A stretch of DNA of 44,468 nt from a virus (Duplodnaviria; Heunggongvirae; Uroviricota; Caudoviricetes), in the IMG/VR virus record IMGVR_UViG_2778261246_000004, positions 1-44,468 of that record; one strand, given 5' to 3'. The notes below the pieces were generated by a model, which saw nothing but the letters and a program-made list of their open reading frames with translations, did not search any database and had not been told where the DNA came from. Position 1 is the stretch's first letter. Every line of letters starts with the position of its first letter. The position numbers and the translations under genes were made by a program. This document shows, piece by piece, positions 1 through 17,675 of this stretch.

Positions 1-576
1 TTATTGGCCAATACCAAACGCTCGGATTGAACCCAAATCCTCCAGGTTATTCAGCTCTTGCTTCATCTCCCGCTGACGCTGATAAATCTCGTCATTGCGA
101 TCGACCTGTGCCTGCGCCATTGCTGTCGCCAGTTCTTCCAGTTCCGGCATTGACAGTTTCACCTGTTGATTATCGGCATCACCCCACGCAAGGGTGGTTC
201 GTGCCGTATCGGATTTCGCCGCCATTACTACCGGATAAAGACGTGCCATTGAGTCGGGGCCAGCGTTCCAGGTGCGACCGTTCCATTCGAACGTGAACGG
301 CAGTGCTTCCTGTTCTGTACGCCACACCTCGATTTCCCGCTTTTTGGCATCTTTTGCCGCTGCGATAAGTTCCGGCGTGATGGTGAACGGGGCGATTTCG
401 CCCCATTTTCCGCTCTGCAACTCTTCCCAGATGCGCTGGCCTGTCGGTGCGGTATCGTCCTGCATGGCGGTATACGGGACGAATTCCGTTTCACCTTCAA
501 ATAACACCTCGCAGTCAACCGCGCCATTTTCAAGGTAATGCGCGTTTCTGATGCCTTTTACCGCTCTGATTTTCAT
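1..576 (-). CDS. Tail fibre assembly protein (Tfa-type chaperone) for the adjacent side tail fibre
   Basis: 191-aa ORF, ATG at 576, stop at 1-3; immediately 3' of the long fibre gene; Tfa-like composition (from memory, no search). Confidence 0.6.
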   Translation of the reverse strand: MKIRAVKGIRNAHYLENGAVDCEVLFEGETEFVPYTAMQDDTAPTGQRIWEELQSGKWGEIAPFTITPELIAAAKDAKKREIEVWRTEQEALPFTFEWNGRTWNAGPDSMARLYPVVMAAKSDTARTTLAWGDADNQQVKLSMPELEELATAMAQAQVDRNDEIYQRQREMKQELNNLEDLGSIRAFGIGQ

Positions 577-590
577 GTCTTATTTCCTCG

Positions 591-3500
591 TTACTCGATG
601 CGCACGAACAGGCAAAGGAATCCTCTATCACCATATGTAACACGCGTACCAGACAAAGCCTGATAACGCCCCGGGAAATTGTATGCACCGGCTCCGCCAA
701 CATTAACCTGGGGAGATGAAACATACGACCCGGCATCATTGATTGTGCAACTCATCGAGACTGGCCCCAGCCGCGAACCCGGTACGATATCCCCCAGACC
801 AATTTTGATTGCCTTATCGCCTGCTGCTGTTCCCTGATAGACTGCGAGAATAAGAGAGCCAACTGCCGGATATTTGTAATATGAGTACGGGCCGTTGCCT
901 GCCGTCCGGGACAGCAGGAAGGCCAGCGAATCGCCGTCGTAAATGACGGGACTTACTGTTGCATTCCAGTTATTTCCACTCCAGCGGTAAGTCAGGCGAT
1001 GAATACTGTGCTCACCTTCGTAATACTGGTTAAAACACAGCAGCGTTTTGAATTTACGCGTTGTGTCCGACTCATCGTTATCAAAGGGCGACCACATTAC
1101 ATCAATGATGCCGTTAAATTTTGTGGTTCCTGCCAGTAGTGTGGAAGAATCCGCAATACTGACCGCATAACGCCCCGGGGTGACCTCTTTCAGCCACTCA
1201 GCAAAATCAGCCTGCCCATCAAATGCCAGTGCATCGGTGCTGGTAAATGCCTGACCGAATCCATACATGCCGGACAGCGCCAGCCTGCTTGGTGTACGGT
1301 CGCGGATATCGCTCTGGGGGTCCATTGTTGCGGCAGCTTTTAATTCCAGCAACGCACGCATCTTCTCATATGTTCCCAGACCAAGAAGCGACTTCGCTCG
1401 CCCTGTCAGGTCCGTCAGTGTCAGATTCCCGCTTTCGTTGTAATACAAAAGTGAATTTTTTCTCGGCGTAATCTGACCGACTGCTGTTAACACGTCATTA
1501 AGCGGCTGTTTACCTGCCAGTGCTTTAGTGACGGTTGTCGCAAAGTTCGGGTCATTACCCAGCGCCGCTGCCAGCTCGTTCAGCGTGTCGAGGGCTTCCG
1601 GTGATGAGCCAACCAGCGCGGCAAGCAGTTTGCGGACAAACTCCGCATTGGCTATTTCATTACCTGCTGCATCATCTGGTGGTGTTGGCGTGGACGGCGT
1701 TCCGGTCAGTGCCGGGCTGTTCAGTGGCGCGCGGGTTTCAATCAGTGCCCGGAGTGAAGCCTCGTTGACTTTCAGGTTTTCCCAGCCAACCAGATAACCA
1801 TCTCCGGTAGTCCAGTAGCGATTGTAATAAATATGGCCGTTAATACCGTAAAAAATAATGATTTTGGCCACATATGCCGGATTGGGGTTGGTTTGAGGTT
1901 CCGGCCAGATAATTTCAACGGTGCCGCTGAACAGGACTCCGGGAATCACTTTATCTGCGCCATAAACGACATAACGACCCGGTTTTGCTGTTTTTACCCA
2001 GCGGAGAAAATCTGCCTCTGTTTTAAACTCGGTCCTGTCGCCGCTGGAAAATACTTTCCCGAATCCAAACATGCCGGGAATCGCCAGACGGCCTTCGGTG
2101 CGGTCGTAAATATTCTCCTGCGCATCCTTTTGTGCTGCATTGCCCAGTTGTGGCGTCAGATTCGTCCAGGTGACCGGGGCGGAGATATTATCGCCACGAA
2201 CGGTCATGAGTATCCGTCCGTCTTTTCCAAAAAACAGAACCAGCTTTGTTGCTGTCTGGCTGGTTTTGTCGTCCCAGCCATTATCCAGCCAGATAATTTC
2301 TGTTATTCCGGTCGTCTCTTCCGTTTGTGTGGAAAAGGTGTAATACCGTCCCGGGTGCAGGTTATGCGCGCTTTTGGCTATGGTCGCCATATCGCGGGCA
2401 ATAATTGAACTTGCTCCGGCGTCCGTCATTCCGTAACCAAATGCACCTGGCAGCGCAACACGGCCTTCCGTGCTGTCGTAAAGGTCTGTCTGAATGTCCC
2501 TTACCGCTGCGCTTTTCAGCTCAAGCTCATTGCGCATGGTTTCCACTGTGGCCTGTGCCAGCAGTGACCGGGCTTTTTCTGACAGCGGAGACAGTGAAGC
2601 ATTCCCGTCCTGATTAAAGCACAGAAGATTATCCGCCCGTTCTTCCAGATTACTGATTGCGGTTAACACGTCACTGAGTGGTTGTTTACCCGCCAGCGCG
2701 TTCATGATTGTTGTCGCAAACTCCGGGTCATTGCCCAGCGCCGCTGCCAGCTCGTTCAGCGTGTCCAGGGTTTCCGGTGACGAGTCAACCAGTGCAGCAA
2801 GCAGCTTACGGACAAAAGCCGCGTTCGCCATCTCCAGCCCGGTCGCATCGTCCGGTGGAGTTGGTGTGGTTGGCGTGCCGGTGAACGCCGGGCTGTCCAG
2901 CGGCGCTTTTGTTTTCGTCTCGTCCATGACGGTTTTGACGGCCTTCGGTGTGGCTGCCAGTTCTTCGCTGTCGTTATCCGTATCACTACAGAGTTGCACC
3001 AGGCCTTTTTCTGTCGTGGAGGCATTGCTTCCCTTCAGGTCATCAACTATCCGTTGCGCCTCGTCCCTGTGCTGTTTCGCGTTCTGCTCGCTTTTTGCTG
3101 CCGCTTCGGCGCTGGCTTTTGCCTCGCCGGTCAGCGTTGCGGCTTCATCGAGTTTATCGACCGCTTTCTGGACTATCTTATCGGCATCTTTGACCGCCTG
3201 TTCTGCACGGGCGGCATCCTGTTTGGCAGATGACGCCAGTAACGCCACCTGCTTTTTATCTTCGGCAACGTCTTCTGCGTTCTGCTGTACGTTATCTGCC
3301 AGCGTCTGACAGTCTGCCTTTATCTTCTGCGCATCAGCGACATGTTGCCCGGCCTGTTGTTCGCTTTCCGCTGCCGCTTCCGCGCTCTGCTGCGCCTGCG
3401 CCACCATTTCCTCAAAGCGTTTCACTACATCCGGCTTTAAATCGCCTTCATCAAGGGCGGTCAGAAAGTCGTTCAGCGTGCCGGGCTTTGAATCGTCGTA

Positions 3501-3731
3501 AACCGAAATATCACCGACACAATATTCTCTTTCAATACACGACCGAAAATAAACATCATATCTTCCAGTCTGAGCCTCAAATGCATATTCTCCTGCCGGC
3601 CCTGTCACCACTGTTGCCACCGTTCTCATGACCACTGCAGATGTATTCTGTCGGGCTTTCAGAATAATATGGTATCCGGACATGGGAAGCCCCGCCCCAT
3701 CAGTCAGCACACCAGAAATTAATACAGACAT
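591..3731 (-). CDS. stf: Side tail fibre protein, lambda Stf-like N-terminus with repeated C-terminal modules
   Basis: 1046-aa ORF; N-terminal 100 aa align by eye with lambda Stf (ISGVL..G.G.P...I.LKAR.N...V....V, YDDS/EDSQPGTLNDFL); coiled Ala/Gln-rich stalk; conserved block APLDSPA.TGTP..P; internal duplication. Confidence 0.8.
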   Translation of the reverse strand: MSVLISGVLTDGAGLPMSGYHIILKARQNTSAVVMRTVATVVTGPAGEYAFEAQTGRYDVYFRSCIEREYCVGDISVYDDSKPGTLNDFLTALDEGDLKPDVVKRFEEMVAQAQQSAEAAAESEQQAGQHVADAQKIKADCQTLADNVQQNAEDVAEDKKQVALLASSAKQDAARAEQAVKDADKIVQKAVDKLDEAATLTGEAKASAEAAAKSEQNAKQHRDEAQRIVDDLKGSNASTTEKGLVQLCSDTDNDSEELAATPKAVKTVMDETKTKAPLDSPAFTGTPTTPTPPDDATGLEMANAAFVRKLLAALVDSSPETLDTLNELAAALGNDPEFATTIMNALAGKQPLSDVLTAISNLEERADNLLCFNQDGNASLSPLSEKARSLLAQATVETMRNELELKSAAVRDIQTDLYDSTEGRVALPGAFGYGMTDAGASSIIARDMATIAKSAHNLHPGRYYTFSTQTEETTGITEIIWLDNGWDDKTSQTATKLVLFFGKDGRILMTVRGDNISAPVTWTNLTPQLGNAAQKDAQENIYDRTEGRLAIPGMFGFGKVFSSGDRTEFKTEADFLRWVKTAKPGRYVVYGADKVIPGVLFSGTVEIIWPEPQTNPNPAYVAKIIIFYGINGHIYYNRYWTTGDGYLVGWENLKVNEASLRALIETRAPLNSPALTGTPSTPTPPDDAAGNEIANAEFVRKLLAALVGSSPEALDTLNELAAALGNDPNFATTVTKALAGKQPLNDVLTAVGQITPRKNSLLYYNESGNLTLTDLTGRAKSLLGLGTYEKMRALLELKAAATMDPQSDIRDRTPSRLALSGMYGFGQAFTSTDALAFDGQADFAEWLKEVTPGRYAVSIADSSTLLAGTTKFNGIIDVMWSPFDNDESDTTRKFKTLLCFNQYYEGEHSIHRLTYRWSGNNWNATVSPVIYDGDSLAFLLSRTAGNGPYSYYKYPAVGSLILAVYQGTAAGDKAIKIGLGDIVPGSRLGPVSMSCTINDAGSYVSSPQVNVGGAGAYNFPGRYQALSGTRVTYGDRGFLCLFVRIE

Positions 3732-3756
3732 TTTTATTTCCTGATTCAGAAAACCA

Positions 3757-4857
3757 TTAACCGTAATAATTCACGCCTTTTTTATCGGCTTTTTTCTTCC
3801 CTGATGCTTTCCCTTTCACGGAGATATCGGTGGCCAGCGACAGATTCAGCGTAAATCCCTGCCCCGGTGCCAGTGAAAACTCCACCGACTCAGCCTGCCA
3901 GTTATGATCCTCGCGTACCCCAAAACCCTGCGTGATAAAACGCATCTCCGCTCCTGCTTTCAGCAGTTCCGGCCTGCAGGGCAACGTTATCGTCATCTGG
4001 CGTCCGGCTTTCTGCACACGTTTAACCTTCGACTCTGCACAGTGTTTTGCGGTATCCTGGTCAGGTTGGGTAAACGGATGCCGCTTGTCTGTTGACTCCA
4101 CGTCAACTTTAACTTCACGTGTGCGTCCGTCACGGGCATCAAAATACCGGACACCCACTTTCCCTTTTTTTGTTGTTCCTTTTCCGCCTCCGGATGCTCC
4201 CTGCCGCTCCCCCTCCCGGTAATCCCAGTCTGACACCATATCCGGTGTGATGGTCATTACAGGGGCATCCCTGCCACCTGTGCTCTGTGATGCACCATAC
4301 TCCAGAAATAACCAGTAACCGTTCGTCGGTTTACTGGTGGCACCATACATACCAGCAAGCCGGGAAAGCAGGGACGCATCCGATTCAGATGACTGCATCG
4401 CCCACGGAATACGAATTTTTGCCAGCGCCGGTGATACCTGCGCCACCAGATTATTTTCAGTGGCGATGGTTTTCACCAGGTCGCCCAGTGTGATATCGCT
4501 GAAAGCCCGGGTTTTCAGTGCGGTCACGTCTGCGCCATGTTTTGACGCATTCATGGGGGCTGCGGTGGCATAAATGGTGATCCGGCGGGGAGGACCGCCG
4601 CTTGCCACCTGACAGACTGTAAAGCTGCCTTTATTGACCAGGTTTCCGTTGAATCCCAGTCCCAGCATTAACACCGCGCCTTTTGGTGGCAGCGCCATCG
4701 TCTCACTGAACAGGGTTATCATCAGTTCATCAGAGCGCTTTGTGGCAGCACCATTATCGGTATAACGCAGTTCAGCCAGCCCCCGCTTTATGGCCTTCGT
4801 GATATCCTCACCCTCTGCTGTCAGGCTGAAATCCGGCTGATACTCATTCAGTCCCAT
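3757..4857 (-). CDS. Tail protein D (P2 gpD / late control D family)
   Basis: 366-aa ORF at the distal end of the sheath-tube-E-T-U-X-D block, matching P2 gene order; size and Gly/Lys-rich C-terminus typical. Confidence 0.7.
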   Translation of the reverse strand: MGLNEYQPDFSLTAEGEDITKAIKRGLAELRYTDNGAATKRSDELMITLFSETMALPPKGAVLMLGLGFNGNLVNKGSFTVCQVASGGPPRRITIYATAAPMNASKHGADVTALKTRAFSDITLGDLVKTIATENNLVAQVSPALAKIRIPWAMQSSESDASLLSRLAGMYGATSKPTNGYWLFLEYGASQSTGGRDAPVMTITPDMVSDWDYREGERQGASGGGKGTTKKGKVGVRYFDARDGRTREVKVDVESTDKRHPFTQPDQDTAKHCAESKVKRVQKAGRQMTITLPCRPELLKAGAEMRFITQGFGVREDHNWQAESVEFSLAPGQGFTLNLSLATDISVKGKASGKKKADKKGVNYYG

Positions 4858-5066
4858 AACTGAAACGTCTCCTTCACTTCCGGTTCATATACCCAGTCCG
4901 GCAACACGATTTCCACTCCCGCCGGATAGACCGGACCAAGGTCAGCCAGTCCGGGATTGGCTTCCAGTACCGCCGCCAGTGACTGGTTAAGCCCGGTACT
5001 GCCATAGTGTCTCTGGCAGATGTCATCCAGCATATCGCCGTCAGTAGTCCGCCAGTTTTTCGCCAT
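4848..5066 (-). CDS. Tail protein X-like (P2 gpX family, LysM-like)
   Basis: 72-aa ORF overlapping neighbours; size and position consistent with gpX. Confidence 0.5.
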   Translation of the reverse strand: MAKNWRTTDGDMLDDICQRHYGSTGLNQSLAAVLEANPGLADLGPVYPAGVEIVLPDWVYEPEVKETFQLWD

Positions 5067-5535
5067 AGTATTTCAGCTCCAGTGTGAACGTTTTGTTCTT
5101 CGGCGCACCGCCGGGAAGAAAGGACGTGGTGTTATCTGAATAGGCAGTTGCCACGAAATACCCCATCACATCACCTGTGCTCGAGACCAGAAGATGCGGG
5201 GCCGGATTGTCATCCACCATCTGAACCAGTGTATCAAGAGCGTCCATTCCCACACCGTCACGAAATCCTGCATGCGCCATACCTTCAAGGGTTATTGTTC
5301 TGGCCCCCTTGCCGGTATACTGCAGCAGGTCGTTTTTTCCGATAAGCTGTTGTTCATCCCATCGCCATTCCATCGTGCGCTTCATGGCGTTATAAGCAGC
5401 AGTATCAATACTGAATTCAAACTCACCAAACGACAGCATGACGCGGGAGGCGACATCCGTTAATGATCCCACCGCGTCCCATGCTTCACGCTCAAGCCGG
5501 TTTACGCCCCAGCCCAGCAAATCCACCATATTCAC
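5041..5535 (-). CDS. Tail protein U-like (P2 gpU family)
   Basis: 164-aa ORF directly after the tape measure gene with ATGA overlap; matches P2 T-U-D order. Confidence 0.55.
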   Translation of the reverse strand: MNMVDLLGWGVNRLEREAWDAVGSLTDVASRVMLSFGEFEFSIDTAAYNAMKRTMEWRWDEQQLIGKNDLLQYTGKGARTITLEGMAHAGFRDGVGMDALDTLVQMVDDNPAPHLLVSSTGDVMGYFVATAYSDNTTSFLPGGAPKNKTFTLELKYYGEKLADY

Positions 5536-7193
5536 CCCCAGAATGCATCACCATCAGTCATGCGGGAACGCTGACCAAAATTAATATCTCCCAGATTTTT
5601 CGTTACCCTGTCTGCCAGTTGTCCGGCATCCTCGCCGGGCTTCTGAGTGATGTTAAATTCCGCCCGTATCTGATATGTGGGTTTTACTTCCACCTGGCTG
5701 ATACTGCCAGAGGTATCTTTCAGTGCCGAGAGGCGATCCTGGTTTTCCGGCTCCTGCCCTGCAGCAGGGAGTACGCCATACTCTGACAGACCATTGCGGA
5801 TTGCCTCTTCCCATCCCTTAAAGTCGGGAGTATCTTCTGGCCCCAGCAAAGGGTCGAGAAATGCATCAAACTTTTTATTGTCGTGATTCCAGGGGAGATA
5901 ACCGCGGGTGTCTTTATAGGCCTGTACAACCTGTTTCGTCAGGTCCGGATTTTTCCTGATAAGTTCATCAAACCATTCACCCTGACCGTTTTTCTGCGCC
6001 ACCGCTCTTGCCAGCTCCGGCGACCCCATTTTTGCCAGATATTCCAGCACCTCTCGCCGGTCCTCTCGCGGATCATCCGCCAGCCCCCACTCAATGGCTT
6101 TTTGTGTAATTCCGCCCAATACTTTTCCGAAATTCCACATCCAGGCAGCCATCCTGATCAACGTCGGCAAAGCGACGTCATTTATAAATTTCTGAATTTT
6201 TTCCAGTCCACCATACTTAAACCAGGCCGCAAGGTCATCCGTCACTCGTTGAATATGGGGGGAAAGCTGCTTACCCAGCTTTCCACTGATATCATCAATG
6301 GAAGAATTCAGAACATTGCGGAGATTCGACAGCGCCGCATGTCCCTGTACTGCGCCATCTACCCCTTCTTTTGTTACCAGGTTATAACGTTTCTGCTCAC
6401 TGATAAGCTCACCGAAGGTTTTTCCTGACAGACGCATCCAGGTCAGAATTTTATTGGCCTCACCACCAAACAATGCATCTGCCATCCCGGCAGCCACCTG
6501 TTCATCTTTCACCTCCAGCAACCGATCAAAAATAAATTCAACCTGCTCCTGGTTGTTTTTTCCGGCCATCACCCCGGCTTTCAGTCCCAGTTTGCCAAAA
6601 ACCTCCTGAATGGCCCCTTTATCAGTGGCACCATTATCATCGTCAAAAACCTTGTTCCGGTACTCCTCAAACAGATCACCGATGTTTTCACCGTTCAGCC
6701 CCATCAGTCGGGCCAGAGAATCCCATGCCGCATAGGTTTCATAATCCACCCCATAACTGCGGGCTATCCCTGCCCGCTCTGCCGTCTCCGTATTCCGGTT
6801 AAGCACAGCAGTAGTGCCCGCCGCCAGCGTCAGGCCCGCCCCCGCAGAAAGCCCAAAACCGGTTTTAAGGACCGTCCCCGCCCGCCCTTTCCAGCGTTCC
6901 AGGCGTTCCGCACGAGCCAGTTTACGGTTAAATTTGTCCTGCTCTCCGGTGGCATCATGAATTTTTTTACCCAGCTTTTCATACTGCTTTCGCAGATCAG
7001 TAATATCCTGTCCAGCCAGTACGCCAGCCTGAATTTTTCGTTTCAGTACATCCTGCTGGCGTGTCAGGCGAGCCACTTCCTGCGTTGCTCCTGATAATCC
7101 GTGCTTCAGTCCATCTACCGATTTTTTCCACGACGGATCTATCGAGCCGCCGATCCTGATATTCGCTTTAAGGTTATCGCCAACCGTTGCCAT
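5532..7193 (-). CDS. Tail tape measure protein
   Basis: 553-aa ORF downstream of the tail chaperone frameshift gene; Ala/Gly/Leu-rich with predicted coiled segments; overlapped by the E' extension. Confidence 0.7.
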   Translation of the reverse strand: MATVGDNLKANIRIGGSIDPSWKKSVDGLKHGLSGATQEVARLTRQQDVLKRKIQAGVLAGQDITDLRKQYEKLGKKIHDATGEQDKFNRKLARAERLERWKGRAGTVLKTGFGLSAGAGLTLAAGTTAVLNRNTETAERAGIARSYGVDYETYAAWDSLARLMGLNGENIGDLFEEYRNKVFDDDNGATDKGAIQEVFGKLGLKAGVMAGKNNQEQVEFIFDRLLEVKDEQVAAGMADALFGGEANKILTWMRLSGKTFGELISEQKRYNLVTKEGVDGAVQGHAALSNLRNVLNSSIDDISGKLGKQLSPHIQRVTDDLAAWFKYGGLEKIQKFINDVALPTLIRMAAWMWNFGKVLGGITQKAIEWGLADDPREDRREVLEYLAKMGSPELARAVAQKNGQGEWFDELIRKNPDLTKQVVQAYKDTRGYLPWNHDNKKFDAFLDPLLGPEDTPDFKGWEEAIRNGLSEYGVLPAAGQEPENQDRLSALKDTSGSISQVEVKPTYQIRAEFNITQKPGEDAGQLADRVTKNLGDINFGQRSRMTDGDAFWG

Positions 7194-7310
7194 AACGTCG
7201 CTTCCTCTCTTCCGACTCCGCCAGCATCATTGACACAAAATCCGTATACGGCAGCGCCATCACATCTCCGGGAGACCACCCGAACCAGGCACCGGCACGC
7301 CGTATCGCCG

Positions 7311-7619
7311 TCAGGATGCTTTCTTCTTCCGCCGGACCGGCGGCAGCAAAAAAACATTAAACTGCCGCTCCAGAGCCAGGTAATCACACGCTTCCATGTT
7401 CATCATGTCTGCCGCGTCCATCCCGCACAGACCGGCAATCATATCCAGATCAGCCTCGGCTTCCGGTTTGGTACTCCTGCGATGTAACAGACGATCGCGG
7501 ACAGTGGGCGCACGCATGGTGACGTGCGTGATCGTCTGTCCTGATGCGGTGACATACGGCACGGATAACACAATTTCCACGCTGCTGGCAGGCACACTGT
7601 TTTTTTCCGACATAAGCAT
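7311..7619 (-). CDS. Tail assembly chaperone (P2 gpE-like); E+E' fusion made by -1 frameshift, extension ending at stop 7174-7176
   Basis: 102-aa ORF between tube and tape measure genes; slippery T TTT TTG near its 3' end; -1 frame stays open for 57 codons (AAAGPAEEESILTAIRRAGAWFGW...GNGWR) and overlaps the tape measure start. Confidence 0.7.
   Translation of the reverse strand: MLMSEKNSVPASSVEIVLSVPYVTASGQTITHVTMRAPTVRDRLLHRRSTKPEAEADLDMIAGLCGMDAADMMNMEACDYLALERQFNVFLLPPVRRKKKAS
7346..7356 (-). promoter_or_regulatory. Programmed -1 ribosomal frameshift slippery site (G TTT TTT TG, T-run at plus 7348-7354)
   Basis: Heptamer T TTT TTG in the zero frame of the chaperone gene; same motif and position as the P2 E/E' and lambda G/GT systems. 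Confidence 0.6.
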
Positions 7620-7673
7620 CTCCTTTAAAAAAGAAAAGGCGGCCTGAGCCGCCTGAATAACCGGATACCCGGA

Positions 7674-8192
7674 TTAAACCCGGATGATTTTTTTCAGATC
7701 AGACAGAACATTAACGCCGTTAATACGGCGCACAAATTCCTCCGGAATAATGCAGATGGTTTCCACACCGTCGACAGCCTGACGGTAATAACTCAGTGAC
7801 ATTTCCACCGTCACCGAAGCCTCTGCCTGTGATGTCGCCGGGCGCGCATCCGGCGTGATACTGGTGATCATCCCCTGCAGTGTCTCCACCTGCCCGCTGG
7901 TCGCATTTCCCACCTGGTAAGCCTGGCGGACAACAATCTCCGGCGAATAAAGCCCGGCCTGCAATCCCAGCAGCGTAAGCATGGCAACATCATAACCATA
8001 AATCTTAAACGAACAGGTCAGCGCTTCCATGCCGTCATCCACTGCCACCGGTGCATCCATTGCGCCGGTTTTGATATCCACTGTCGTGATATTAATGGCA
8101 GGCGGCGTGTATTCATGCGCACCCTGAAGGCGGATCCCGCCAGGAAGAAATAACGCCCATGCGCGCAACAGTTTTTTTTCACCCGTCATCAT
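7674..8192 (-). CDS. Tail tube protein (P2 FII-like)
   Basis: 172-aa ORF directly downstream of sheath with ATGA overlap; same length as P2 FII. Confidence 0.75.
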   Translation of the reverse strand: MMTGEKKLLRAWALFLPGGIRLQGAHEYTPPAINITTVDIKTGAMDAPVAVDDGMEALTCSFKIYGYDVAMLTLLGLQAGLYSPEIVVRQAYQVGNATSGQVETLQGMITSITPDARPATSQAEASVTVEMSLSYYRQAVDGVETICIIPEEFVRRINGVNVLSDLKKIIRV

Positions 8193-9664
8193 ACCGTCAG
8201 TTCCTCCAGCGCCAGTTTATTGTTAATCATTGCCCGCAGTGTCAGGCGCTCCAGTGGTGACTTCGGCCCAAAGTCATAATCGATATACAACTGCCCTGCC
8301 GCCAGGGTTTCTGCTGTATTCAGTTCATCATTCAGCCAGGCGCTGCCACCGTGGATCGCACCCAGATTTTTAAGCTGACGCATATAGGCATTAATGCTGC
8401 CAAGAATGTCGTCTGCCACATCCCGATCAAGCGGGCGATCGACATAAGGCAACATGGCCTCCTGGATACTGTCCTCAATCACATCTGCAGTGCGACGTAC
8501 CGGTTCAAAGCGCCACTGACTGTGGGATGTGCACAGACGGTTACCCCAGTGTTTAAAACCGTCATGGCGAATAATGGTGGAGATATTTTCCATGTTCAGC
8601 AGGTTTGCCGTGCAGTTCTGCTCCCCGAGAATAAACGTATCCACCTGCTCCAGACCGGTGATATTCATCACGTCCTGGTTTGATTTGGACCACCACCACC
8701 CTTTTTCGTAATCAATACGGGCACGCAGCCCGGCAGCACGAGCCGAATATGGACGAAATATCGTTTGCCCGCTGTCATCCGTCACTGACACGCGCGGACG
8801 CAGCAGCTCCACACGCCCACCAAATGACGCGCGCCGCTGAACCACATCCTGCGGCGTTGCCATTGAAGGCGAGTCAATATAGGCCACAGCCCGCAGCTTC
8901 ACGGCATACGTTTCCAGCGCCTTTGCCACGCCATCATCCTCACTGTACCCCGTGGCAATGAGGATGCGCGGTTGATAGCCTGTGACGCCCTTACTTTCTG
9001 TCAGCGCCTCCATGGCCTGAATCACCGCCGCACGCTGTTCGGCCTCTTTCGCCTTTGTTTTACTTTCTGCGCGCACCACAATCACCAGCGCACCAGTCTG
9101 GTCAAAAATATCACGCAGGGCCGGGTATAATGTTCCGGCTGTGCCCAGTTTCCCCGCCTGAGTAATGGCCCCTGCCACCACCACCGGTGTGTTGACCGGG
9201 AACGCCTCATCTTCCCCGCCGGATAACGTCAGGCTGAATGGCGACACCACTTTATTTTCAGCGCCTCCTGCATTCAGGGTGCTGGCAGCCGCCGTCACAG
9301 GCGAATCCCCCAGCGCATTCACCACTTCAGTCACACGATCCACCGTGGCGTTAACCTGGCTGTGTTCGTCCGTCCCCAGTGTTATCGTCAGGGTCGTACC
9401 TTTCAGCGAGGCCACTGTCTGCGCGTTTTGTTCCGTGGCAGCCACGGCAACAACCGAAATCTTATTACCGACCCGACCTTCCTGTTTCGCCGTGAAATCC
9501 AGCGCCGTTCCCAGCAGCCATGAGCCGGCAGTGCCGGAAGCGCACACACCACCAGAGGCGTCCGGCGCTGTCCCCACCAGGCCAATCACTGCCGTGGAGA
9601 TGGTCTGCACGGCAACCGTGCCTGTCGTCAGTTCAATGGTTTCAACACCATGTAATCCGGACAT
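8189..9664 (-). CDS. Contractile tail sheath protein (P2 FI-like)
   Basis: 491-aa ORF; size, position upstream of tube gene and overall sequence character match myovirus sheath proteins. Confidence 0.8.
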   Translation of the reverse strand: MSGLHGVETIELTTGTVAVQTISTAVIGLVGTAPDASGGVCASGTAGSWLLGTALDFTAKQEGRVGNKISVVAVAATEQNAQTVASLKGTTLTITLGTDEHSQVNATVDRVTEVVNALGDSPVTAAASTLNAGGAENKVVSPFSLTLSGGEDEAFPVNTPVVVAGAITQAGKLGTAGTLYPALRDIFDQTGALVIVVRAESKTKAKEAEQRAAVIQAMEALTESKGVTGYQPRILIATGYSEDDGVAKALETYAVKLRAVAYIDSPSMATPQDVVQRRASFGGRVELLRPRVSVTDDSGQTIFRPYSARAAGLRARIDYEKGWWWSKSNQDVMNITGLEQVDTFILGEQNCTANLLNMENISTIIRHDGFKHWGNRLCTSHSQWRFEPVRRTADVIEDSIQEAMLPYVDRPLDRDVADDILGSINAYMRQLKNLGAIHGGSAWLNDELNTAETLAAGQLYIDYDFGPKSPLERLTLRAMINNKLALEELTV

Positions 9665-9676
9665 ACATTTCTCCCA

Positions 9677-9700
9677 TAAAAAAACCGCCCTCAGGCGGTC
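9677..9700 (-). terminator. Rho-independent terminator-like hairpin between the fibre chaperone gene and the sheath gene
   Basis: Minus-strand RNA GACCGCC-UGAG-GGCGGUC followed by U8, just upstream of the sheath RBS. Confidence 0.5.
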
Positions 9701-9718
9701 AGATGATTAACTTCTTTT

Positions 9719-10264
9719 TCAGGTATTTTGTGGCTGCTCAGGCCAGCTAATATTGTTGTAAGTGGTCTTATCCGTAATAGCGCTGAAATCCATCGCCTGC
9801 AGCGATTTCGCGTAAATGCGGTACGCTTTGAGCTTTTCCCTGTCTTCGTCGCTGATTAAACCCAGCAGCAGGTCTTTTTCCCATTCGCTGGTCATGATAC
9901 TGACCTGTTTTAACAGTGCGTCACACTCATCTTCCGCTTTAAGTTTGTAGTCAAAAACAAATTCATCATTGCGGTAGAACCAGTAACCCGACGCCTCAAT
10001 GCGACGATTGGCGGTAATATCCGGTAGCTCAATCACGCTTTTATTTTCCGGGCAGATTGAGGTGATGTCTTTTCCGACCCAGACCACTTCGCCAGTTTCA
10101 ACATAAATAACTTTCAGAGTGTCTGGCTGAAATTTTTCCTGGGCTTCGTGCCATTCCTGACCATCATCGGAGAACAGCCACAATAAAAATTTATGCTGTC
10201 GCGCCAGCTGGTATTGCTCAATTGTTTTGGGGTTTTGTACCGTAAGATTTTTTAAGTGCATCAT
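9719..10264 (-). CDS. Tail fibre assembly protein (P2 gpG / Tfa-like)
   Basis: 181-aa ORF; N-terminus MMHLKN...NPKT.EQYQL and motif LPDITANRR typical of enterobacterial Tfa proteins; directly 3' of fibre gene. Confidence 0.75.
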   Translation of the reverse strand: MMHLKNLTVQNPKTIEQYQLARQHKFLLWLFSDDGQEWHEAQEKFQPDTLKVIYVETGEVVWVGKDITSICPENKSVIELPDITANRRIEASGYWFYRNDEFVFDYKLKAEDECDALLKQVSIMTSEWEKDLLLGLISDEDREKLKAYRIYAKSLQAMDFSAITDKTTYNNISWPEQPQNT

Positions 10265-10266
10265 AA

Positions 10267-11652
10267 TTACAAACTCGCTACATTCCGCCAGACGCCATTA
10301 ATCAGAACCTGCACCGGGCGGGCATTGGCCCAGTCCATACTTTCACCACCATCAAGACCGCTGATAAGGTGACCTGATGGTGCATTCCCGCCACGCCCAA
10401 TACCAATGGCACCGCCCAGACGCACATCCTGTACACCGCCTGTTTTGGTCTGATAGCGGGCATCAAAGTTTCCGTAGTTTGATGGAACCATCTGCCCGTT
10501 TACAGCGAACGTTATACTGTTATCCGTATTCCTCTGACTGTAAAAATGCCAGCCGGAATCATCGCCAAGCTCTGCAACTACAGGTCGGGATGAATTACCC
10601 CATAAATTAAACGTTGCGTTTTTCGTGGAGTTGTTGGCGCTGGATAACGTGAATTTTTTAGCATTTCCGGCCTGAATATTTTTTAACGCTATCGCCACAC
10701 CATTCTGGAAACGAAATACATGCTGTCCATTCGCATAAACATCCAGAATGCCGTCGCCGTTTTGTTTTATACCTGTATCGTTATCCCCGAAAGCAATTGA
10801 GTTTCCGCCCAGCGCGTTCTGAACGCCGATACCCAGCGTACCATTGACCTGAGAACCGCCGCCAACAGACACTTTATGCGACATGGATATTTCACCCGTC
10901 CGCAGATTAATAGTGAACGGTCGAAGTGGACCAATATCGCCATTCTCGCCCTGACCTTCACTGGTAGGGATAAGGTGCAGGCACTCTTCCGAACGACGAA
11001 AAATCAGACCAAAGGCTTCGTTGAAAATCCTCAGCGCATTAACACCACGGATTTTCAGTTCCCCGGTCATGGTGTCACCATCACGCTGAACGGCATTTTT
11101 TGCCTTGTCCACCGTGGGTTTTAATCCGAGGTTTTCAACAGCCTCATCCTTGTCTTCCACATCCGAAAGATTCTTTTTTCGTTGCAGATAGCGTCTGTCT
11201 CCGATTTCCTGAGTAATAATGGCCCTGTCCGGATCAACTTCCAGCACCACGTTTTGTGCGTGCGTCAGCCCAAGAACCAGCGTCAGAATAACTTCCTTGA
11301 TAACGGAGTCCGTCTGGTCTGGTAAAAAGGTGTCGGGATAACGTCCGTACGCGATAAGCGTACCTCTGTCGCTGATCATCCCCAGTTCACGAAGGGTTTT
11401 ACCGGGGTATGATTTACAGTCAATCACAATATCCCCGCTGATGAAGCCCTCCTCCACCGCACCGTCGGAAAAGGGTTCCTGCCCGAATTCGCCGTACAAC
11501 GATGTCATTGCTGCCATTTCATCCGGCGTGGAGGGCAATGCCCGCCCGCCCCCGTCACCAAGCAGAACATGCCGGACGGTCACGGTTTGCCCGTTCTGAT
11601 ATGCTGCTTCAATTTCTGCAGCGCCGGACGTTGTCAGAATCAGTCCATTCAT
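10267..11652 (-). CDS. Tail fibre protein (P2 gpH-like N-terminal domain)
   Basis: 461-aa ORF between gpI-like and Tfa genes; Gly/Asn-rich C-terminal half typical of fibre tips. Confidence 0.75.
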   Translation of the reverse strand: MNGLILTTSGAAEIEAAYQNGQTVTVRHVLLGDGGGRALPSTPDEMAAMTSLYGEFGQEPFSDGAVEEGFISGDIVIDCKSYPGKTLRELGMISDRGTLIAYGRYPDTFLPDQTDSVIKEVILTLVLGLTHAQNVVLEVDPDRAIITQEIGDRRYLQRKKNLSDVEDKDEAVENLGLKPTVDKAKNAVQRDGDTMTGELKIRGVNALRIFNEAFGLIFRRSEECLHLIPTSEGQGENGDIGPLRPFTINLRTGEISMSHKVSVGGGSQVNGTLGIGVQNALGGNSIAFGDNDTGIKQNGDGILDVYANGQHVFRFQNGVAIALKNIQAGNAKKFTLSSANNSTKNATFNLWGNSSRPVVAELGDDSGWHFYSQRNTDNSITFAVNGQMVPSNYGNFDARYQTKTGGVQDVRLGGAIGIGRGGNAPSGHLISGLDGGESMDWANARPVQVLINGVWRNVASL

Positions 11653-12239
11653 ACACCTGCCTCACTCTGCCCGCCTGTGGGCACTGTCTTTGTTGTCACA
11701 CCGGTACTTCTGATTTTTTCTGTCGCCATCACATAGCCGTAACCAAATCCACGCCCTGTGCTGTTCCCGTAAACGTGAATACTGAACCAGCTGCGCAGAT
11801 TTTTGGCACGGAGCACCGCATGCTTCAGATCCTGATGATCATTCATCAGCACCGGTAAATCCTTCTGCTCCACGTTCAGACGAAAGGTATACGGCTCCCC
11901 GGGTGGGGTCTGCTCATACCACTCAACAATCTGCGACCGGAAGGGACTGTCAGCCAGCGATGCCATCAGCGCCGCTTTAGTCCCTCTGTGGCGGTGGATG
12001 TAAGCAGCACGTTTTATCGCAGACCGTTTTTCCGCCTCCGTCCAGTGTTCATTCCAGGTGTCCACCGCCATTTCCCAGGCCAGCCATGGCAGCAATTCAG
12101 CAGGACATAAATCGGGATTTTTCACATAGCGGATCAGGCAGACCGCTATGTCTGACAGCATATCTCCGGCGACACAGTCCACCACCCGCTCTGCCCGGCT
12201 GGCACTGACCGGCAGTATGCTCCTGATATCGTCATTCAT
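11649..12239 (-). CDS. Baseplate protein gpI-like
   Basis: 196-aa ORF; motif PA.LLPWLAWE/A...D.W matches P2 gpI by memory; position after gpJ. Confidence 0.75.
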   Translation of the reverse strand: MNDDIRSILPVSASRAERVVDCVAGDMLSDIAVCLIRYVKNPDLCPAELLPWLAWEMAVDTWNEHWTEAEKRSAIKRAAYIHRHRGTKAALMASLADSPFRSQIVEWYEQTPPGEPYTFRLNVEQKDLPVLMNDHQDLKHAVLRAKNLRSWFSIHVYGNSTGRGFGYGYVMATEKIRSTGVTTKTVPTGGQSEAGV

Positions 12240-13146
12240 CAGTTGTCTCCACCTTATTCAGCGTTACCTTACGGCACCACGGTGCCTGCCCCATCGCAGG
12301 AACGATATCACTGCCCGGAGAAGTCAGATTCACCGTAATCACCCCGGTCTGGTGAAGGGCACCATCCATGCCAGAACGGGATGCCACCGAGCCAATCCGG
12401 TGGACACTGTCAGTGTATGACTGCAGCGCCTTGTGGGCATTTGCCATAACCAGTTCACCATCCAGTCCGTAGGGAATATGAATATCCGCCACCACATCGT
12501 AGGGAATAATTTCTGCCGCCCGGACACTGACAAAATCCGTCAGGGGACGGGTTTCATCATCACAGACTGATGCTGCCACCTTATCCAGCAGAGGTTGTGA
12601 TGCAGTGCCATTTCCGGACCGGGATAACACATAAAGAAAAACCCGGCCTTCCTGCGAATGTGTTTCCGGCCCGTAAGCCTTCACATCCAGCACGTCAGGA
12701 TCAGCACTTTGTGCAAAATAGTGATACGCATTTTTCGCGCCGGCGGTGCTGAGCCGTGCCCATGACAACTGGATACGTTCGCGAAAAGCGTCATCATCTT
12801 CATACACCGCCGGCGTGGGCGGAACGGTGCTGTCGTCTGCCGGGGTAATCACCAGACGCTGTACCTGAAAATTCGCACCAATCTGATCCAGGTCGTTCCT
12901 TCGGGCGCTCGCAAGCAGTACACCCCGGACAGCATCATTGACCTGCTGGCGCATCAGCGCCACCCGGAAAGCCAGCGCCTCTGCCCATTTATACGCGGGA
13001 TCAGATTCCACCAGAGCCGAAAACAACGTATCCAGCTCCTGATACTTCGCCACTATCTGAGTGACCAGCACAGCGGTGTCCGGCACCTCCACCGCATCCG
13101 GTACCGGTATCGCGGACAGATCAATAATTGCCTGAGACGTTGCCAA
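12232..13146 (-). CDS. Baseplate assembly protein J (P2 gpJ-like)
   Basis: 304-aa ORF (P2 gpJ is about 302 aa); V-W-J-I order. Confidence 0.8.
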   Translation of the reverse strand: MATSQAIIDLSAIPVPDAVEVPDTAVLVTQIVAKYQELDTLFSALVESDPAYKWAEALAFRVALMRQQVNDAVRGVLLASARRNDLDQIGANFQVQRLVITPADDSTVPPTPAVYEDDDAFRERIQLSWARLSTAGAKNAYHYFAQSADPDVLDVKAYGPETHSQEGRVFLYVLSRSGNGTASQPLLDKVAASVCDDETRPLTDFVSVRAAEIIPYDVVADIHIPYGLDGELVMANAHKALQSYTDSVHRIGSVASRSGMDGALHQTGVITVNLTSPGSDIVPAMGQAPWCRKVTLNKVETTDE

Positions 13147-13477
13147 TTTTTATCTCCTCGAGTCGAATCGTTTCCTGAGTTTCGTTGTTCACCCCGACAA
13201 GCGTCAGCCACGCGCTTCCTTCTCCTGTCCACGTCACTTCCACCCGCCGGAGAGTCAGACGGGGTTCCCAGCGTTCAAGGGCGGTTACCGTTTCACGAAC
13301 AATTCTCACCCGCGTGAAATCATCCTGTGGGTTATCAAGCAGACTGAAAAGTCTGCTGCCGTATTCCCTGAGCAGGACCCGGCTGCCGACCGGTGTTGAC
13401 AAAATATCAGTGACGGACTGGCGCAGATGTTCGTTACCGTGCAGATATCTGCCGGTGGCTGAATCAATACCAATCAT
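13121..13477 (-). CDS. Baseplate protein W (gpW / GP25-like)
   Basis: 118-aa ORF; block D.L.TPVGSRV.RR.YGS resembles P2 gpW. Confidence 0.8.
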   Translation of the reverse strand: MIGIDSATGRYLHGNEHLRQSVTDILSTPVGSRVLLREYGSRLFSLLDNPQDDFTRVRIVRETVTALERWEPRLTLRRVEVTWTGEGSAWLTLVGVNNETQETIRLEEIKIGNVSGNY

Positions 13478-13510
13478 GTTGTTTATTCCGGAAAAAGAAC
13501 TGAAAGGAGA

Positions 13511-14134
13511 TTACATTTGCTGACCAGGCTGTCCGGTGCTGCCACCACTGTCGCCCCGGTGATTGTGACCGTTATAGACAATTCTGATTTGACTCATCGT
13601 TCCGTGATAATCAGAAACCTCACCACCGACCATCAGATCCGCCTTAACCACCGCCTCAGCATTCATGGTTGCTTTACCCTGTACGGTCAGGGTATCTGTG
13701 ATTTCTACCGGACCGTCCAGGGTTCCCCTGCCTGTAATTTTATAGCTGCCGCCTTCAGCCAGCGTGATGGACAGGACATTAGCCTGACGGTCGTAACGGA
13801 TTTCCGTTCCGGTATCAAACAAAATAACATGTTCGTATTCACTGCCCTCAGGGACAGGAATGGCGTCAATATTGGCCCCCGGATACACCCGACCGTTACG
13901 CAAATCGCCCGCCTCCGATATCACTGTAACGGCATCTCCGGGAGCCGGGTAATTACTGACCTGCATGTAGCGCCCGGACTGTACCTGAATCCAGGGCAAC
14001 GGAGGCGAAAGCACATCCCCGATATCCACCCGAACCATCACCGGGCTACCCGGGATCACCTCGTCCACCACGCCGCGACGGACCATGTCCGCCACCCTGC
14101 GGCGTAACTCTGCCACTTCATCCGCCAGACTCAT
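13511..14134 (-). CDS. Baseplate spike protein V (P2 gpV-like)
   Basis: Start taken at internal ATG 14134 (GGAGGG RBS 8 nt upstream; longer ORF overlaps the upstream gene); C-terminal Gly-rich needle motif with His residues. Confidence 0.75.
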   Translation of the reverse strand: MSLADEVAELRRRVADMVRRGVVDEVIPGSPVMVRVDIGDVLSPPLPWIQVQSGRYMQVSNYPAPGDAVTVISEAGDLRNGRVYPGANIDAIPVPEGSEYEHVILFDTGTEIRYDRQANVLSITLAEGGSYKITGRGTLDGPVEITDTLTVQGKATMNAEAVVKADLMVGGEVSDYHGTMSQIRIVYNGHNHRGDSGGSTGQPGQQM

Positions 14135-14684
14135 CACCGGTGCCCTCCGATTTCCAGATAAGACGATAATCCCGCTCATGTTTCTTGCCGGTTTCCGGAG
14201 CTTTCCCCAGCCAGACTTCCTGTAACGGCGCACCAGCCGGAACCTCGAACGGATCTTCTCCGACAGGAATATCCTGTTCAAAAGAAACGCGGAAAACGAT
14301 GTAGTCATCCAGAAGCCGGTCGAAGGTATCCACCTCAGCATCAATAAAAACAGCCGGATCAACGTTATCCAGCCCGAACGTGGCCCCCTCAATCCAGTCA
14401 GATAAATCCATCGCCAGACAACGGGCAAAAATCTGCGGTTTTGGCACGTTTTCCGTCTTCCCGGCCCGGTCTGTCACCACAAACAGATCACATTTCAGCG
14501 TGACCCGCGTCTGCCCGTCGGCAAACTGAGCCTTGTCCCAGCCCGGTACATCCACAAACACGGCAGGCGTCACCAGTTGTGTCACTTTTTCCGGATACTC
14601 ATCGGCATCTTCCACCCAGGGAATTTGTTTCAGACTGTCAATCACCGCCTGATGCCAGGCGCCCATCATCAATGGCTCCATCAC
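14118..14684 (-). CDS. Hypothetical tail completion / neck protein (position of P2 R/S)
   Basis: 188-aa ORF between head-joining genes and gpV; function assigned by position only. Confidence 0.4.
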   Translation of the reverse strand: MMEPLMMGAWHQAVIDSLKQIPWVEDADEYPEKVTQLVTPAVFVDVPGWDKAQFADGQTRVTLKCDLFVVTDRAGKTENVPKPQIFARCLAMDLSDWIEGATFGLDNVDPAVFIDAEVDTFDRLLDDYIVFRVSFEQDIPVGEDPFEVPAGAPLQEVWLGKAPETGKKHERDYRLIWKSEGTGDESGG

Positions 14685-15403
14685 TCCAGCCCCTTAAATA
14701 CCCGGAATTTCAGTTCATGCTCAAAATTTTTCAGGATCAGTGCTTCCGCATCCGGAAAAACAAAATCCTCTATACGGTTCAGCATGGCTTCATAAATATC
14801 AATTTCCGCTTCACGCACCCTCCGTCGTCCGGATGCCTGTCGGATCAGTATCGTTTTCCTTTTTGATATACGTCCGTTACGATTTTCCGCTTCGAACTGG
14901 TTGATAAAGGCATCATCCGTTGACCAGGTGGTGACAGGCAGGGATTCCCCGGCAGGTTTAAAACGGATCTCCCGTGCCTTCCTCCGGTGGGAAGCTGGTG
15001 CAAAACGCCCCCGCTCATCGCGCAACTGATGGCGTTCGCCGCGTCGTCCCCCACTGATGCGTCCGCGCAGATCGCGTACTTTGATGGCGTTCAGACCGAA
15101 CCATACCTTCGCCTCATCAAACTCATCACCGTTACGACGAATGATAAAATTATGCAGAACACGCTTTTTGATCATTTTCTGACTGCGTGGGGCAACCTGT
15201 TTTTTAAACTCTGCCATAGCCTTCATCCGCAGTGCAGACGCGGCTCTTTTCAGCGCCACGCCCCAGGCTTTACGGATCTGACTTTTTGACCCACCCAGTT
15301 TAGCGATAATTTTCAGCACCTCATCTTCATCAATATCGACAACGAGGTTTCGTGCCAGCCGTCGCTGCCGGGCACTGCTTCGTTCATGCTCTCTGACTGC
15401 CAT
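14681..15403 (-). CDS. Hypothetical virion protein (possible tail completion or head-tail connector)
   Basis: ORF 14681-15463; start likely ATG at 15403 (MAVREHER), overlapping the FII-like gene end; basic protein. Confidence 0.4.
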   Translation of the reverse strand: MAVREHERSSARQRRLARNLVVDIDEDEVLKIIAKLGGSKSQIRKAWGVALKRAASALRMKAMAEFKKQVAPRSQKMIKKRVLHNFIIRRNGDEFDEAKVWFGLNAIKVRDLRGRISGGRRGERHQLRDERGRFAPASHRRKAREIRFKPAGESLPVTTWSTDDAFINQFEAENRNGRISKRKTILIRQASGRRRVREAEIDIYEAMLNRIEDFVFPDAEALILKNFEHELKFRVFKGLE

Positions 15404-16153: not shown

Positions 16154-16203
16154 CACATCTCTCCCGTGCGCTAAAGAAAAAGGCGGGAATATCCCGCCCT
16201 GTC

Positions 16204-17232: not shown

Positions 17233-17301
17233 AATTTATTTTCCTTCAGAAACACAAACGGGCCGCATCGCGACCCGTTTTTTCAGTTAATCACTTCACC
17301 A

Positions 17302-17637: not shown

Positions 17638-17675
17638 TTTTCAGCCTCCTGATTTATCTGAATTCCGGATATCGC

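Follow-up and report, generated by a model that had tools for sequence, protein, structure and literature searches.

The combination of a lambda-type head with a contractile tail in P2 order is already known from sequenced phages, and so is the pairing of two fibre/chaperone systems on one contractile tail. Both designs occur in the late genes of a 44,468-nucleotide (nt) stretch of Caudoviricetes DNA, IMG/VR record IMGVR_UViG_2778261246_000004, which was analysed over its full length and is called the window here. Very probably, its first 23.5 kb are a late (virion) operon belonging to an intact lambdoid prophage of Escherichia coli, of the Rac type, that builds a myovirus, and the element adds a well-preserved lineage of lambdoid myovirus prophages to those described before. 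The attachment of the second of its two fibres (fibre 2) is the other subject of this work.

The same gene order, terS-terL-W-portal-(protease, D, E)-FI-FII(Hc1)-Neck1-phrog_1072-V-...-W-J-I-fibre-sheath-tube-E-T-U-X-D, is found in Vibrio phage Vb_VaM_Valp1 (Valp1, OR500391) and in the Hapunavirus phages VP882, phiHAP-1 and VHML. The Valp1 proteins are 28-51% identical to those of the window across head and tail. Valp1 and the Hapunavirus phages are linear telomere (protelomerase/ParA) plasmid prophages of marine bacteria, whereas in the window the integrase is of lambda type and the early region is Rac-like. VP882 also differs in having a fused protease-capsid gene, and neither Valp1 nor VP882 has a PF08400 fibre. 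HAP1-like viruses were reported to share with P2 essentially just the V and F tail operons (Lavigne et al. 2009, PMC2771037). Identical architecture is seen in E. coli vB_EcoM-569R10 (ON470596), where lambda-type A, W, B, C, D, E, FI and FII genes are joined to a P2-order tail; this element is much more diverged from the window (head 40-63%, tail 27-48%). Its record, 19.9 kb long and truncated, lies next to yecA; gpD is split and a second fibre is absent.

Among 50,697 phage records, the closest tails are those of Hafnia phage yong2 (MZ516527) and Citrobacter phage Chris1 (ON041214), with identities to the window of 61-63% for the sheath, 52-56% for J, 52-55% for V, 42-43% for Neck1 and 48-51% for the tail terminator. 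Both phages have lambdoid early genes, as the window does. They differ from it in tail gene order (V-sheath-tube-E-T-U-X-D-W-J-I-H-Tfa, with the wedge/fibre block after D) and in the head, which has a fused ClpP-capsid protein and not lambda C/D/E.

The two-fibre design is found in the Stx2e phage phiP27 (NC_003356) and in Escherichia phage Rac-SA53 (KU052037), which are lambdoid, have contractile tails and carry both fibre/chaperone pairs of the window: a baseplate fibre with a Caudo_TAP chaperone, then a PF08400 fibre with a DUF4376 protein. Compared with the window, the N-terminal domain of fibre 2 (first 100 amino acids) is 76-78% identical, the first chaperone (Tfa1) 92% and the second (Tfa2) 79%. 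The remaining structural genes are unrelated to those of the window, phiP27 having an HK97-type head with a Mu-like tail and Rac-SA53 a third tail type (sheath phrog_205). The two pairs stand in tandem in phiP27 and Rac-SA53, whereas in the window they are separated by the sheath-to-gpD block. Nothing useful was found in the literature on the combination of a lambda-like head with a P2-like tail, on yong2 or on Rac-SA53.

Gene order and head-to-tail connection

All virion genes are on the minus strand and are transcribed from 23.5 kb down to position 1 (Table 1). Searches with Pfam, PHROG and tblastn found the head and tail genes that an earlier sequence-only reading of this DNA had listed, in the order and on the strand it gave. 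That reading had assigned the whole module to positions 1-15403, which is correct for the tail and fibre genes; the head genes lie beyond, at 15.4-23.5 kb. Its alignment of the head with lambda was borne out by tblastn for Nu1, A, W, B, C, D and E (50-66%) and also for FII (33%). FI gave no tblastn match to lambda, and its identity rests on Pfam and PHROG. To the siphovirus phage 21, the Nu1, A, B, C, D and E proteins are 60-93% identical.

The tail genes are remote P2 homologues in the order V-W-J-I-H-Tfa, then sheath-tube-E/E'-T-U-X-D. Homologues of P2 V, W, J, I, H, G, FI, U, X and D were found at 25-52% identity; gpD matches the N-terminal half of P2 D (38%, E 4e-28). The tube, gpE and tape measure gave no BLAST match to P2 and were recognised by Pfam, PHROG or position, and gpV and the tape measure were identified by PHROG matches and homology to yong2 and Chris1, not by Pfam. 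The P2 order claimed for this block holds for V-W-J-I-H and for sheath, tube, E and T, the V operon preceding the F operon in both phages. It fails for U-X-D, an order shared with VP882, Valp1 and yong2, since X in P2 lies near the lysis genes. The late-gene layout as a whole is lambdoid and unlike that of P2. An in-phase T_TTT_TTG heptamer at 7353-7347, slippery in the -1 direction, would extend gpE to a 148-residue E+E' product that ends at the start of the tape measure gene, and a -1 frameshift arrangement of E/E' is annotated in P2. Relative to yong2 and Chris1 the tail proteins are 41-63% identical (tape measure 36-38%), with no yong2 match for gpH or Tfa1. Among the virion proteins of the window there was no match to the lambda siphovirus tail genes Z to J, in place of which sheath and tube genes are present, or to P2 genes Q, P, O, N, M, L, R and S.

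The head-to-tail connection differs from the earlier reading, in which FII was followed directly by V. Two genes that it had left unnamed, Neck1 and a PA0615-like terminator, lie between them and take the places of P2 R and S. FII matches the structure of lambda gpFII (PDB 1k0h, E 6e-8), is 33% identical to lambda FII and 34% to that of yong2, and gave no phage 21 match. Neck1, a connector specific to this lineage, has homologues in just 7 of the 50,697 phage records: four 569R10-type elements besides yong2, Chris1 and Valp1. The lineage is thus rare among isolates. Pfam and NCBIfam gave no relative for Neck1, and no PDB structure was matched, also not by a profile of the family. The product of 14118..14681 is read as the tail terminator because a profile of its six-member family matches the R2-pyocin collar PA0615 (PDB 6u5f, 'Collar PA0615') over its full length (E 2.1e-11). 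With the FII and PA0615-like matches, the connection consists of W, FII, Neck1 and the terminator. From these genes the particle would be a contractile-tailed myovirus with both fibres mounted; a tail length of about 85-90 nm is estimated from the 553-residue tape measure, and the icosahedral head would be about 60 nm.

The two fibre/chaperone pairs

Fibre 1 (gpH), with its Caudo_TAP chaperone Tfa1, would be a baseplate fibre with a P2-type baseplate-binding N-terminus. Its C-terminal 290 amino acids are 52% identical to P2 H and 77% to phiP27 L54, and region 10700-11179 has 95% nt identity to phiP27. Fibre 2, with its DUF4376 chaperone, closes the operon, would be co-transcribed with the rest and would serve as an accessory fibre; it is considered accessory because the relatives with the same tail type (yong2, Chris1, Valp1, VP882 and 569R10) have no such second fibre.

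When the fibre 2 protein was split into segments and compared with itself by BLAST, internal repeats were found. A collar domain (residues 1-94) and an Ala/Gln-rich coiled coil (~100-235) are followed by a duplicated shaft (273-400 and 665-792, 67% identical), by three related domains of ~100 residues (404-507, 531-634 and 796-900, 30-44% identical), each beginning with a 'D..D.T.GR.A.PG.FG.G' motif, and by a unique tip. The gene has 88% nt identity to Rac-SA53 tail3 over 1476-3738, and the last ~295 amino acids gave no match in any reference phage.

The N-terminus of fibre 2 is of the lambda Stf type, as had been proposed; its supposed Tfa, by contrast, is a DUF4376 protein and not a Caudo_TAP member. 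In lambda, the gp37-like distal tip of Stf is folded by a Caudo_TAP Tfa. The DUF4376 protein is the probable chaperone of fibre 2: its gene follows Stf-like genes in all 11 related loci, and DUF4376 proteins have been named tail-fibre chaperones in Alteromonas phages V22 and A5 (PMC10579305). It has no PDB relative. The ratios of nonsynonymous to synonymous substitution (dN/dS) indicate purifying selection on both pairs (0.06-0.22, with 0.22 for fibre 2 and 0.12 for its chaperone). The earlier statement that a contractile tail and two fibre/chaperone pairs are encoded stands; for such a design phiP27 and Rac-SA53 are precedents. Dual receptor specificity from the two fibre systems is plausible.

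Some related loci differ in layout. In Yersinia similis (L012) and Salmonella enterica (L018), at ~8.6-10.0 kb, a gap of ~1.4 kb separates the first-fibre Tfa from the Stf-like gene; the two are adjacent in the E. coli and Shigella loci. The gap could hold an invertible segment or an alternative tip. A locus labelled E. coli DH5alpha (NZ_CM135829.1, 783176-795657, L023) holds a Rac-SA53-like contractile-tail prophage at ompN/uspF (the Rac locus), with a 1046-residue PF08400 fibre and a DUF4376 gene, which is unexpected in a K-12 derivative; the assembly may be mislabelled or contaminated. The idea that K-12 stfR has a myovirus-type domain was dropped on account of this locus being a Rac-SA53-like prophage, and no claim is made on K-12.

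Attachment of fibre 2

In lambda, residues 1-94 of Stf form a 12-mer collar on the bare tail tube at the gpV/gpM junction, making contacts through the beta4-beta5 loop (PMC12617516). In the Vibrio myophage XM1, the neck carries six gp40 trimers, which are bound to the hexameric ring of the head-completion protein and to the terminator ring (PMC10457771). The window has no homologue of lambda gpV or gpM, and it encodes Hc1 (FII) and a terminator, counterparts of the rings bound by XM1 gp40. We tentatively propose that fibre 2 encircles the exposed neck (FII/terminator) with its N-terminal collar domains, in the same way as XM1 gp40, at a likelihood that we place not far below even. Neck docking is proposed because the lambda tube site would be inaccessible in a sheathed tail, and because the domain belongs to a myovirus-context clade and matches the fold of the XM1 neck collar spike.

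The clade was recognised by scoring 16 N-domains by genomic context, myovirus-context copies being those downstream of contractile-tail baseplate genes or (L015-L017) of a Tfa1-type gene alone. Copies in myovirus context (the window, phiP27, Rac-SA53, and Yersinia, Shigella/E. coli and Salmonella loci) are 66-96% identical to one another and 43-48% identical to those downstream of lambda M-L-K-I-J-lom in siphoviruses. The Stf N-domains beside contractile-tail genes thus form a clade of their own, and the contractile tails they accompany are of three kinds. In place of the lambda contact loop 'EYGQ' stands QTG[K/R] in four of six aligned myovirus-context copies (window, phiP27, Rac-SA53 and Salmonella) and QVGK or RTGK in the other two.

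An AlphaFold2 (AF2) model of residues 1-131 of fibre 2 (pLDDT 80) was searched with Foldseek and matched just two PDB folds at E <= 1e-3, the lambda collar and the XM1 gp40 collar spike. The lambda Stf collar (PDB 9E7M/9MGH) gave a TM-score of 0.85 and 45% identity, with a sequence match to 9e7m at E 2.6e-17; XM1 gp40 (PDB 7KJK) gave E 2e-6 over 129 columns with 25% identity. A weaker Foldseek match was to the neck fibre of myophage A-1(L). By phmmer, residues 1-198 of fibre 2 match residues 1-189 of 7kjk, coiled coil included (E 2.3e-8). Both gp40 and lambda Stf have an N-terminal beta-sandwich 'collar' domain followed by a trimeric coiled coil, as fibre 2 does, and the dimensions in gp40 (an Ig-like N-domain of ~100 residues and a coiled coil of ~100 residues) also fit fibre 2. 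Their distal parts and chaperone differ from those of fibre 2. The Ur-lambda paper makes no mention of XM1.

Several points weigh against docking at the neck. In sequence the N-domain is closer to the lambda tube collar than to gp40 (45% versus 25% identity), and a profile of the N-domain alone finds XM1 at a marginal E of 0.009. No neck or baseplate protein was detected that is common to the three myovirus tail types having this N-domain; the neck PHROGs are phrog_879 in phiP27, unnamed families in Rac-SA53 and phrog_27 in the window. Short versions of the fibre, of ~300-490 residues in phiP27 and Shigella, could not reach the cell from the neck. The wider claim, that the PF08400 collar version tied to myoviruses would mount a long fibre on the neck of lambdoid contractile-tail phages in the manner of XM1 gp40, is offered as a possibility about which we are somewhat doubtful.

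The short versions would make more sense close to the baseplate, and in phiP27, Rac-SA53, Yersinia, Shigella and Salmonella the fibre 2 gene comes directly after the baseplate fibre and its Tfa. Fibre 2 may therefore be a true side fibre on or just above the baseplate, held by an enlarged collar at the sheath/baseplate junction or docked on wedge proteins or fibre 1; this is a credible explanation, if short of a likely one. Against it, BLAST finds no relation between the baseplates of the three tail types, a 12-mer ring of lambda size would fit a bare tube and not a sheath (inferred from PMC12617516), and both myophages matched by Foldseek, XM1 strongly and A-1(L) weakly, carry the domain at the neck. 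Docking on fibre 1 as a general mechanism was rejected, since the six upstream fibres are mosaic and no fibre 1 segment is common to all carriers.

It is improbable that fibre 2 is a passenger, either expressed without being incorporated or serving another element, and kept just as a reservoir for recombination of receptor-binding parts. BLAST and PHROG comparisons of the three tail types found no docking partner, and the relatives that lack such a fibre imply that this tail does not need it. A passenger would not be expected to keep an intact ORF of 1046 residues with a chaperone, both at the low dN/dS given above, or an N-domain conserved as a clade tied to myovirus contexts. In a survey of 5426 complete E. 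coli genomes, gpD and the Stf-like gene were adjacent in 74, and no terminator-like hairpin lies between the two in the window.

Conservation and origin of the module

In the survey set, 63 genomes matched at least 80% of positions 1-24000 at ~95% identity. Every match with at least 90% identity, from 77 genomes, had head, neck and tail contiguous across 14000-18000 (E-FII-neck-V), and in ~75 the second fibre was contiguous with them as well. One carrier is ETEC1738, 99% identical over 14-18 kb. Ordinary lambdoid heads in 1315 genomes matched at just 60-80% identity, and none of the 5426 genomes had a head at least 90% identical joined to a different tail. In comparison with the copy in E. coli 52F4, dN/dS was 0-0.24 for all 26 virion genes. 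The head-neck-tail combination is old and stable, and it is highly likely to be an inherited architecture that arose without a recent fusion.

The element is otherwise a Rac-type lambdoid genome, with an 823-residue exonuclease, YdaS/YdaT, DUF977, DUF968, a holin, a GH108 endolysin and five tRNAs in the rest of the window. The 52F4 copy, 94.5% identical, is chromosomal and adjoins a truncated ompW near the trp operon. Upstream of Nu1, at 23520-23700, there are phage-21-like cosB repeats for Nu1 binding (catgtcggtac / gtccgacatg / catgtcggac). One finding counts against an intact element: the 12-nt lambda/phage-21 cosN GGGCGGCGACCT is absent even when 2 mismatches are allowed, and unrelated sequence stands in its place. 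This unrecognised cosN, the many defective prophages of E. coli and the truncated 569R10-type element with its split gpD at yecA would suit a defective remnant, or a tailocin beside an unrelated head cluster. Such a reading is nevertheless very unlikely, as all 26 virion ORFs are intact, tightly packed on a single strand and under purifying selection throughout, the lambdoid early, lysis and integrase regions are complete in the window, and no insertion sequence (IS) element or att scar lies inside the module. A tailocin was rejected on account of the full head and packaging set, and two adjacent prophages on account of the one uninterrupted operon that is contiguous in ~75 genomes.

Database comparison did not group the structural proteins with a single lineage, and the mosaic nature of the virion module is confirmed: the head falls beside phage 21 and lambda, the tail beside yong2 and Chris1, and the fibre parts beside phiP27 and Rac-SA53. 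Similarity to phage 21 at the nt level (67-83%) covers 16035-17631, 17883-18175, 18223-20794 and 21139-23663 and skips the W gene. The fibre parts have 77-96% nt identity to phiP27 and Rac-SA53, with 95-96% to phiP27 for Tfa1 and the C-terminal two-thirds of gpH. A megablast search of 1-23600 against phages returned head and fibre matches only; no phage record has this tail at the nt level. At some point, phage-21-like siphoviruses have very probably traded the Nu1-to-E block with this lineage, whose receptor-binding parts are very probably swapped cassettes that phiP27 and Rac-SA53 also carry.

Of the two junctions placed earlier at about 3.7 and 15.4 kb, the first is close to a mosaic boundary at ~3.74 kb, where nt similarity to Rac-SA53 (88%) ends 7 nt upstream of the Stf start codon. 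The second has to be moved. The nt boundary with phage-21-type heads is at 16.0-16.2 kb (E/FI) and not 15.4 kb, because the lambdoid-head matches in E. coli, in the rows sampled, end at or near the stop codon of gene E; they mainly covered 16204-17631, and a few began ~120 nt earlier, inside FI. The W gene breaks an otherwise continuous 72-83% nt similarity to phage 21, as would be expected if W co-varied with the lineage-specific FII instead of the other head genes.

The least probable explanation is a recent recombinant, in which a lambda-type siphovirus prophage lately took a P2-type tail, with breakpoints at ~15.4 and 3.7 kb and Stf/Tfa left over from its former siphovirus tail. The head is far closer to siphovirus phage 21 (60-93% amino acid and 72-83% nt identity) than to its counterparts in 569R10 (40-63%) or Valp1 (34-48%) for Nu1, A, B, C, D and E, and Stf is at the lambda stf position, the att-proximal end of the late operon; on the other side stand the absence of a near-identical head on another tail in E. 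coli, the association of FII, Neck1 and terminator with the tail lineage, the recurrence of the architecture in Vibrio, Hafnia and Citrobacter phages, and a Stf N-domain that is of the clade found beside three contractile tail kinds and not of siphovirus type. The notion of a new lambda x P2 recombinant also fell with the same architecture in Valp1, VP882 and 569R10 and with a tail just 25-52% identical to that of P2 and lacking R and S.

Gene positions and other features of the window

Table 1. Virion genes of the window in order of transcription, and the integrase gene. Percentages are amino acid identities.
Feature	Position	Strand	Evidence
Terminase small subunit (Nu1-like)	22951..23499	-	93% phage 21 gp1, 52% lambda Nu1
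Terminase large subunit (A-like)	21063..22979	-	83% phage 21, 66% lambda A
Head-tail adaptor W (Ad1)	20850..21059	-	47% phage 21, 50% lambda, 48% 569R10
Portal (B-like)	19282..20805	-	74% phage 21, 63% lambda B
Prohead protease/scaffold (C/Nu3-like)	17676..19292	-	60% phage 21, 54% lambda C; S49 peptidase annotation in 52F4 copy
Head decoration protein (D-like)	17302..17637	-	77% phage 21, 52% lambda D
Major capsid protein (E-like)	16204..17232	-	Pfam Phage_cap_E E 5.7e-66; 82% phage 21, 59% lambda E
DNA-packaging protein FI	15788..16153	-	Pfam Packaging_FI E 5e-13; phrog_92; 38% phage 21 FI
Head completion protein FII (Hc1)	15384..15788	-	Pfam Phage_attach E 6e-13; phrog_82 Hc1 E 9e-30; PDB 1k0h
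Neck1/tail-completion protein, 240 residues	14681..15403	-	phrog_27 ('tail completion or Neck1') E 1.5e-28
Tail terminator/collar (R2-pyocin PA0615-like), ~187 residues	14118..14681	-	phrog_1072; directly precedes gpV
Baseplate spike gpV	13511..14134	-	phrog_9992 baseplate assembly; 52-55% yong2/Chris1 V, 25% P2 V
Baseplate wedge/sheath initiator gpW (gp25-like)	13121..13477	-	Pfam GPW_gp25 E 3e-15; 39% P2 W
Baseplate wedge gpJ	12232..13146	-	Pfam Baseplate_J E 8e-22; 40% P2 J
Baseplate wedge gpI	11649..12239	-	Pfam Tail_P2_I E 1.6e-35
Baseplate tail fibre gpH (fibre 1)	10267..11652	-	Pfam tail-collar fibre N-terminal domain PF12571, E 1.6e-14
Fibre assembly protein Tfa1	9719..10264	-	Pfam Caudo_TAP E 1.3e-21; 92% phiP27 L55, 36% P2 G
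Tail sheath	8189..9664	-	Pfam sheath domains; 63% yong2, 61% Chris1, 35% P2 FI
Tail tube (FII-type)	7674..8192	-	Pfam Phage_tube E 1.3e-23
Tape-measure chaperones gpE (7311-7619) and E+E'	7174..7619	-	Pfam Phage_TAC_7; slip site 7353-7347
Tape measure protein, 553 residues	5532..7193	-	phrog_3654 and weak tape-measure families; 36-38% to yong2/Chris1 protein in matching position
gpU-like tail protein	5041..5535	-	Pfam Phage_P2_GpU E 3.4e-27
gpX-like tail protein	4848..5066	-	Pfam Phage_tail_X E 1.2e-19
Baseplate hub gpD	3757..4857	-	phrog_52 E 4e-95; Pfam GPD below threshold
Second fibre (Stf-like, fibre 2), 1046 residues	591..3731	-	PF08400 'prophage tail fibre N-terminal', residues 1-134, E 2.5e-54
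DUF4376 protein, 191 residues (putative chaperone of fibre 2)	1..576	-	Pfam DUF4376 E 2.4e-16; 79% phiP27 L57
Lambda-type integrase	42779-43897		Pfam Arm-DNA-bind_1 and Phage_integrase

In the scaffold part of C/Nu3, TRF found a tandem repeat of 138 bp (46 amino acids) at 17803-18309, with 3.7 copies and 79% matches. The repeat unit reads '...LPEAKGREQLAQ.LA.QPGMTV.QAK..LAAAP...', and the alignments to lambda and phage 21 C/Nu3 run outside the repeat or across part of it.

Strong terminator-like hairpins with T-runs were found on the minus strand at 16200-16180 (directly after E), 9700-9683 (directly after Tfa1, where P2 has its V-operon terminator) and 7654-7637 (directly after the tube gene). 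Their probable role, if the operon is Q-antiterminated, would be to adjust expression or mRNA stability.

At 28147-29191, flanked by the Q-side region and the lysis genes, a minus-strand tRNA cluster comprises Val(aac, 82 nt, unusual), Gly(tcc), Thr(tgt), Lys(ttt) and Met(cat). At this position the 52F4 relative has just Gly and Thr annotated. An AT-rich island (29424-31555, GC content 42-46%) is on the + strand, opposite to the phage genes. Its ORFs include three small ones without a family match and one for a 303-residue 'LAPAL motif-containing putative phage structural protein' (NCBIfam E 1e-66); the island may be moron or defence cargo.

Significance

The survey describes a coherent prophage lineage without a characterised phage isolate, present in ~75-100 of the 5426 complete E. 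coli genomes, many of them enterotoxigenic (ETEC) or Shiga toxin-producing (STEC) E. coli from livestock. Among isolated phages, sheath identity to the window reaches 63% at most. The combination of a lambda head with a P2-order tail is inherited, not improvised, and the parts that are exchanged around it have been mapped: the Nu1-to-E block, distal gpH with Tfa1, and Stf with its DUF4376 chaperone.

Delivery particles derived from siphoviruses use the Stf-type N-domain as a portable anchor. With a version mounting on contractile tails, perhaps at the neck, more chassis would be available for host-range engineering, and the movement of receptor-binding cassettes between unrelated tails would be explained. 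If docking at the neck is correct, a single portable fibre cassette could be plugged onto at least three unrelated enterobacterial contractile-tail lineages without a matching baseplate adaptor, and the lambda tube collar and the neck fibres of myophages would be one attachment module that docks on any bare hexameric ring.

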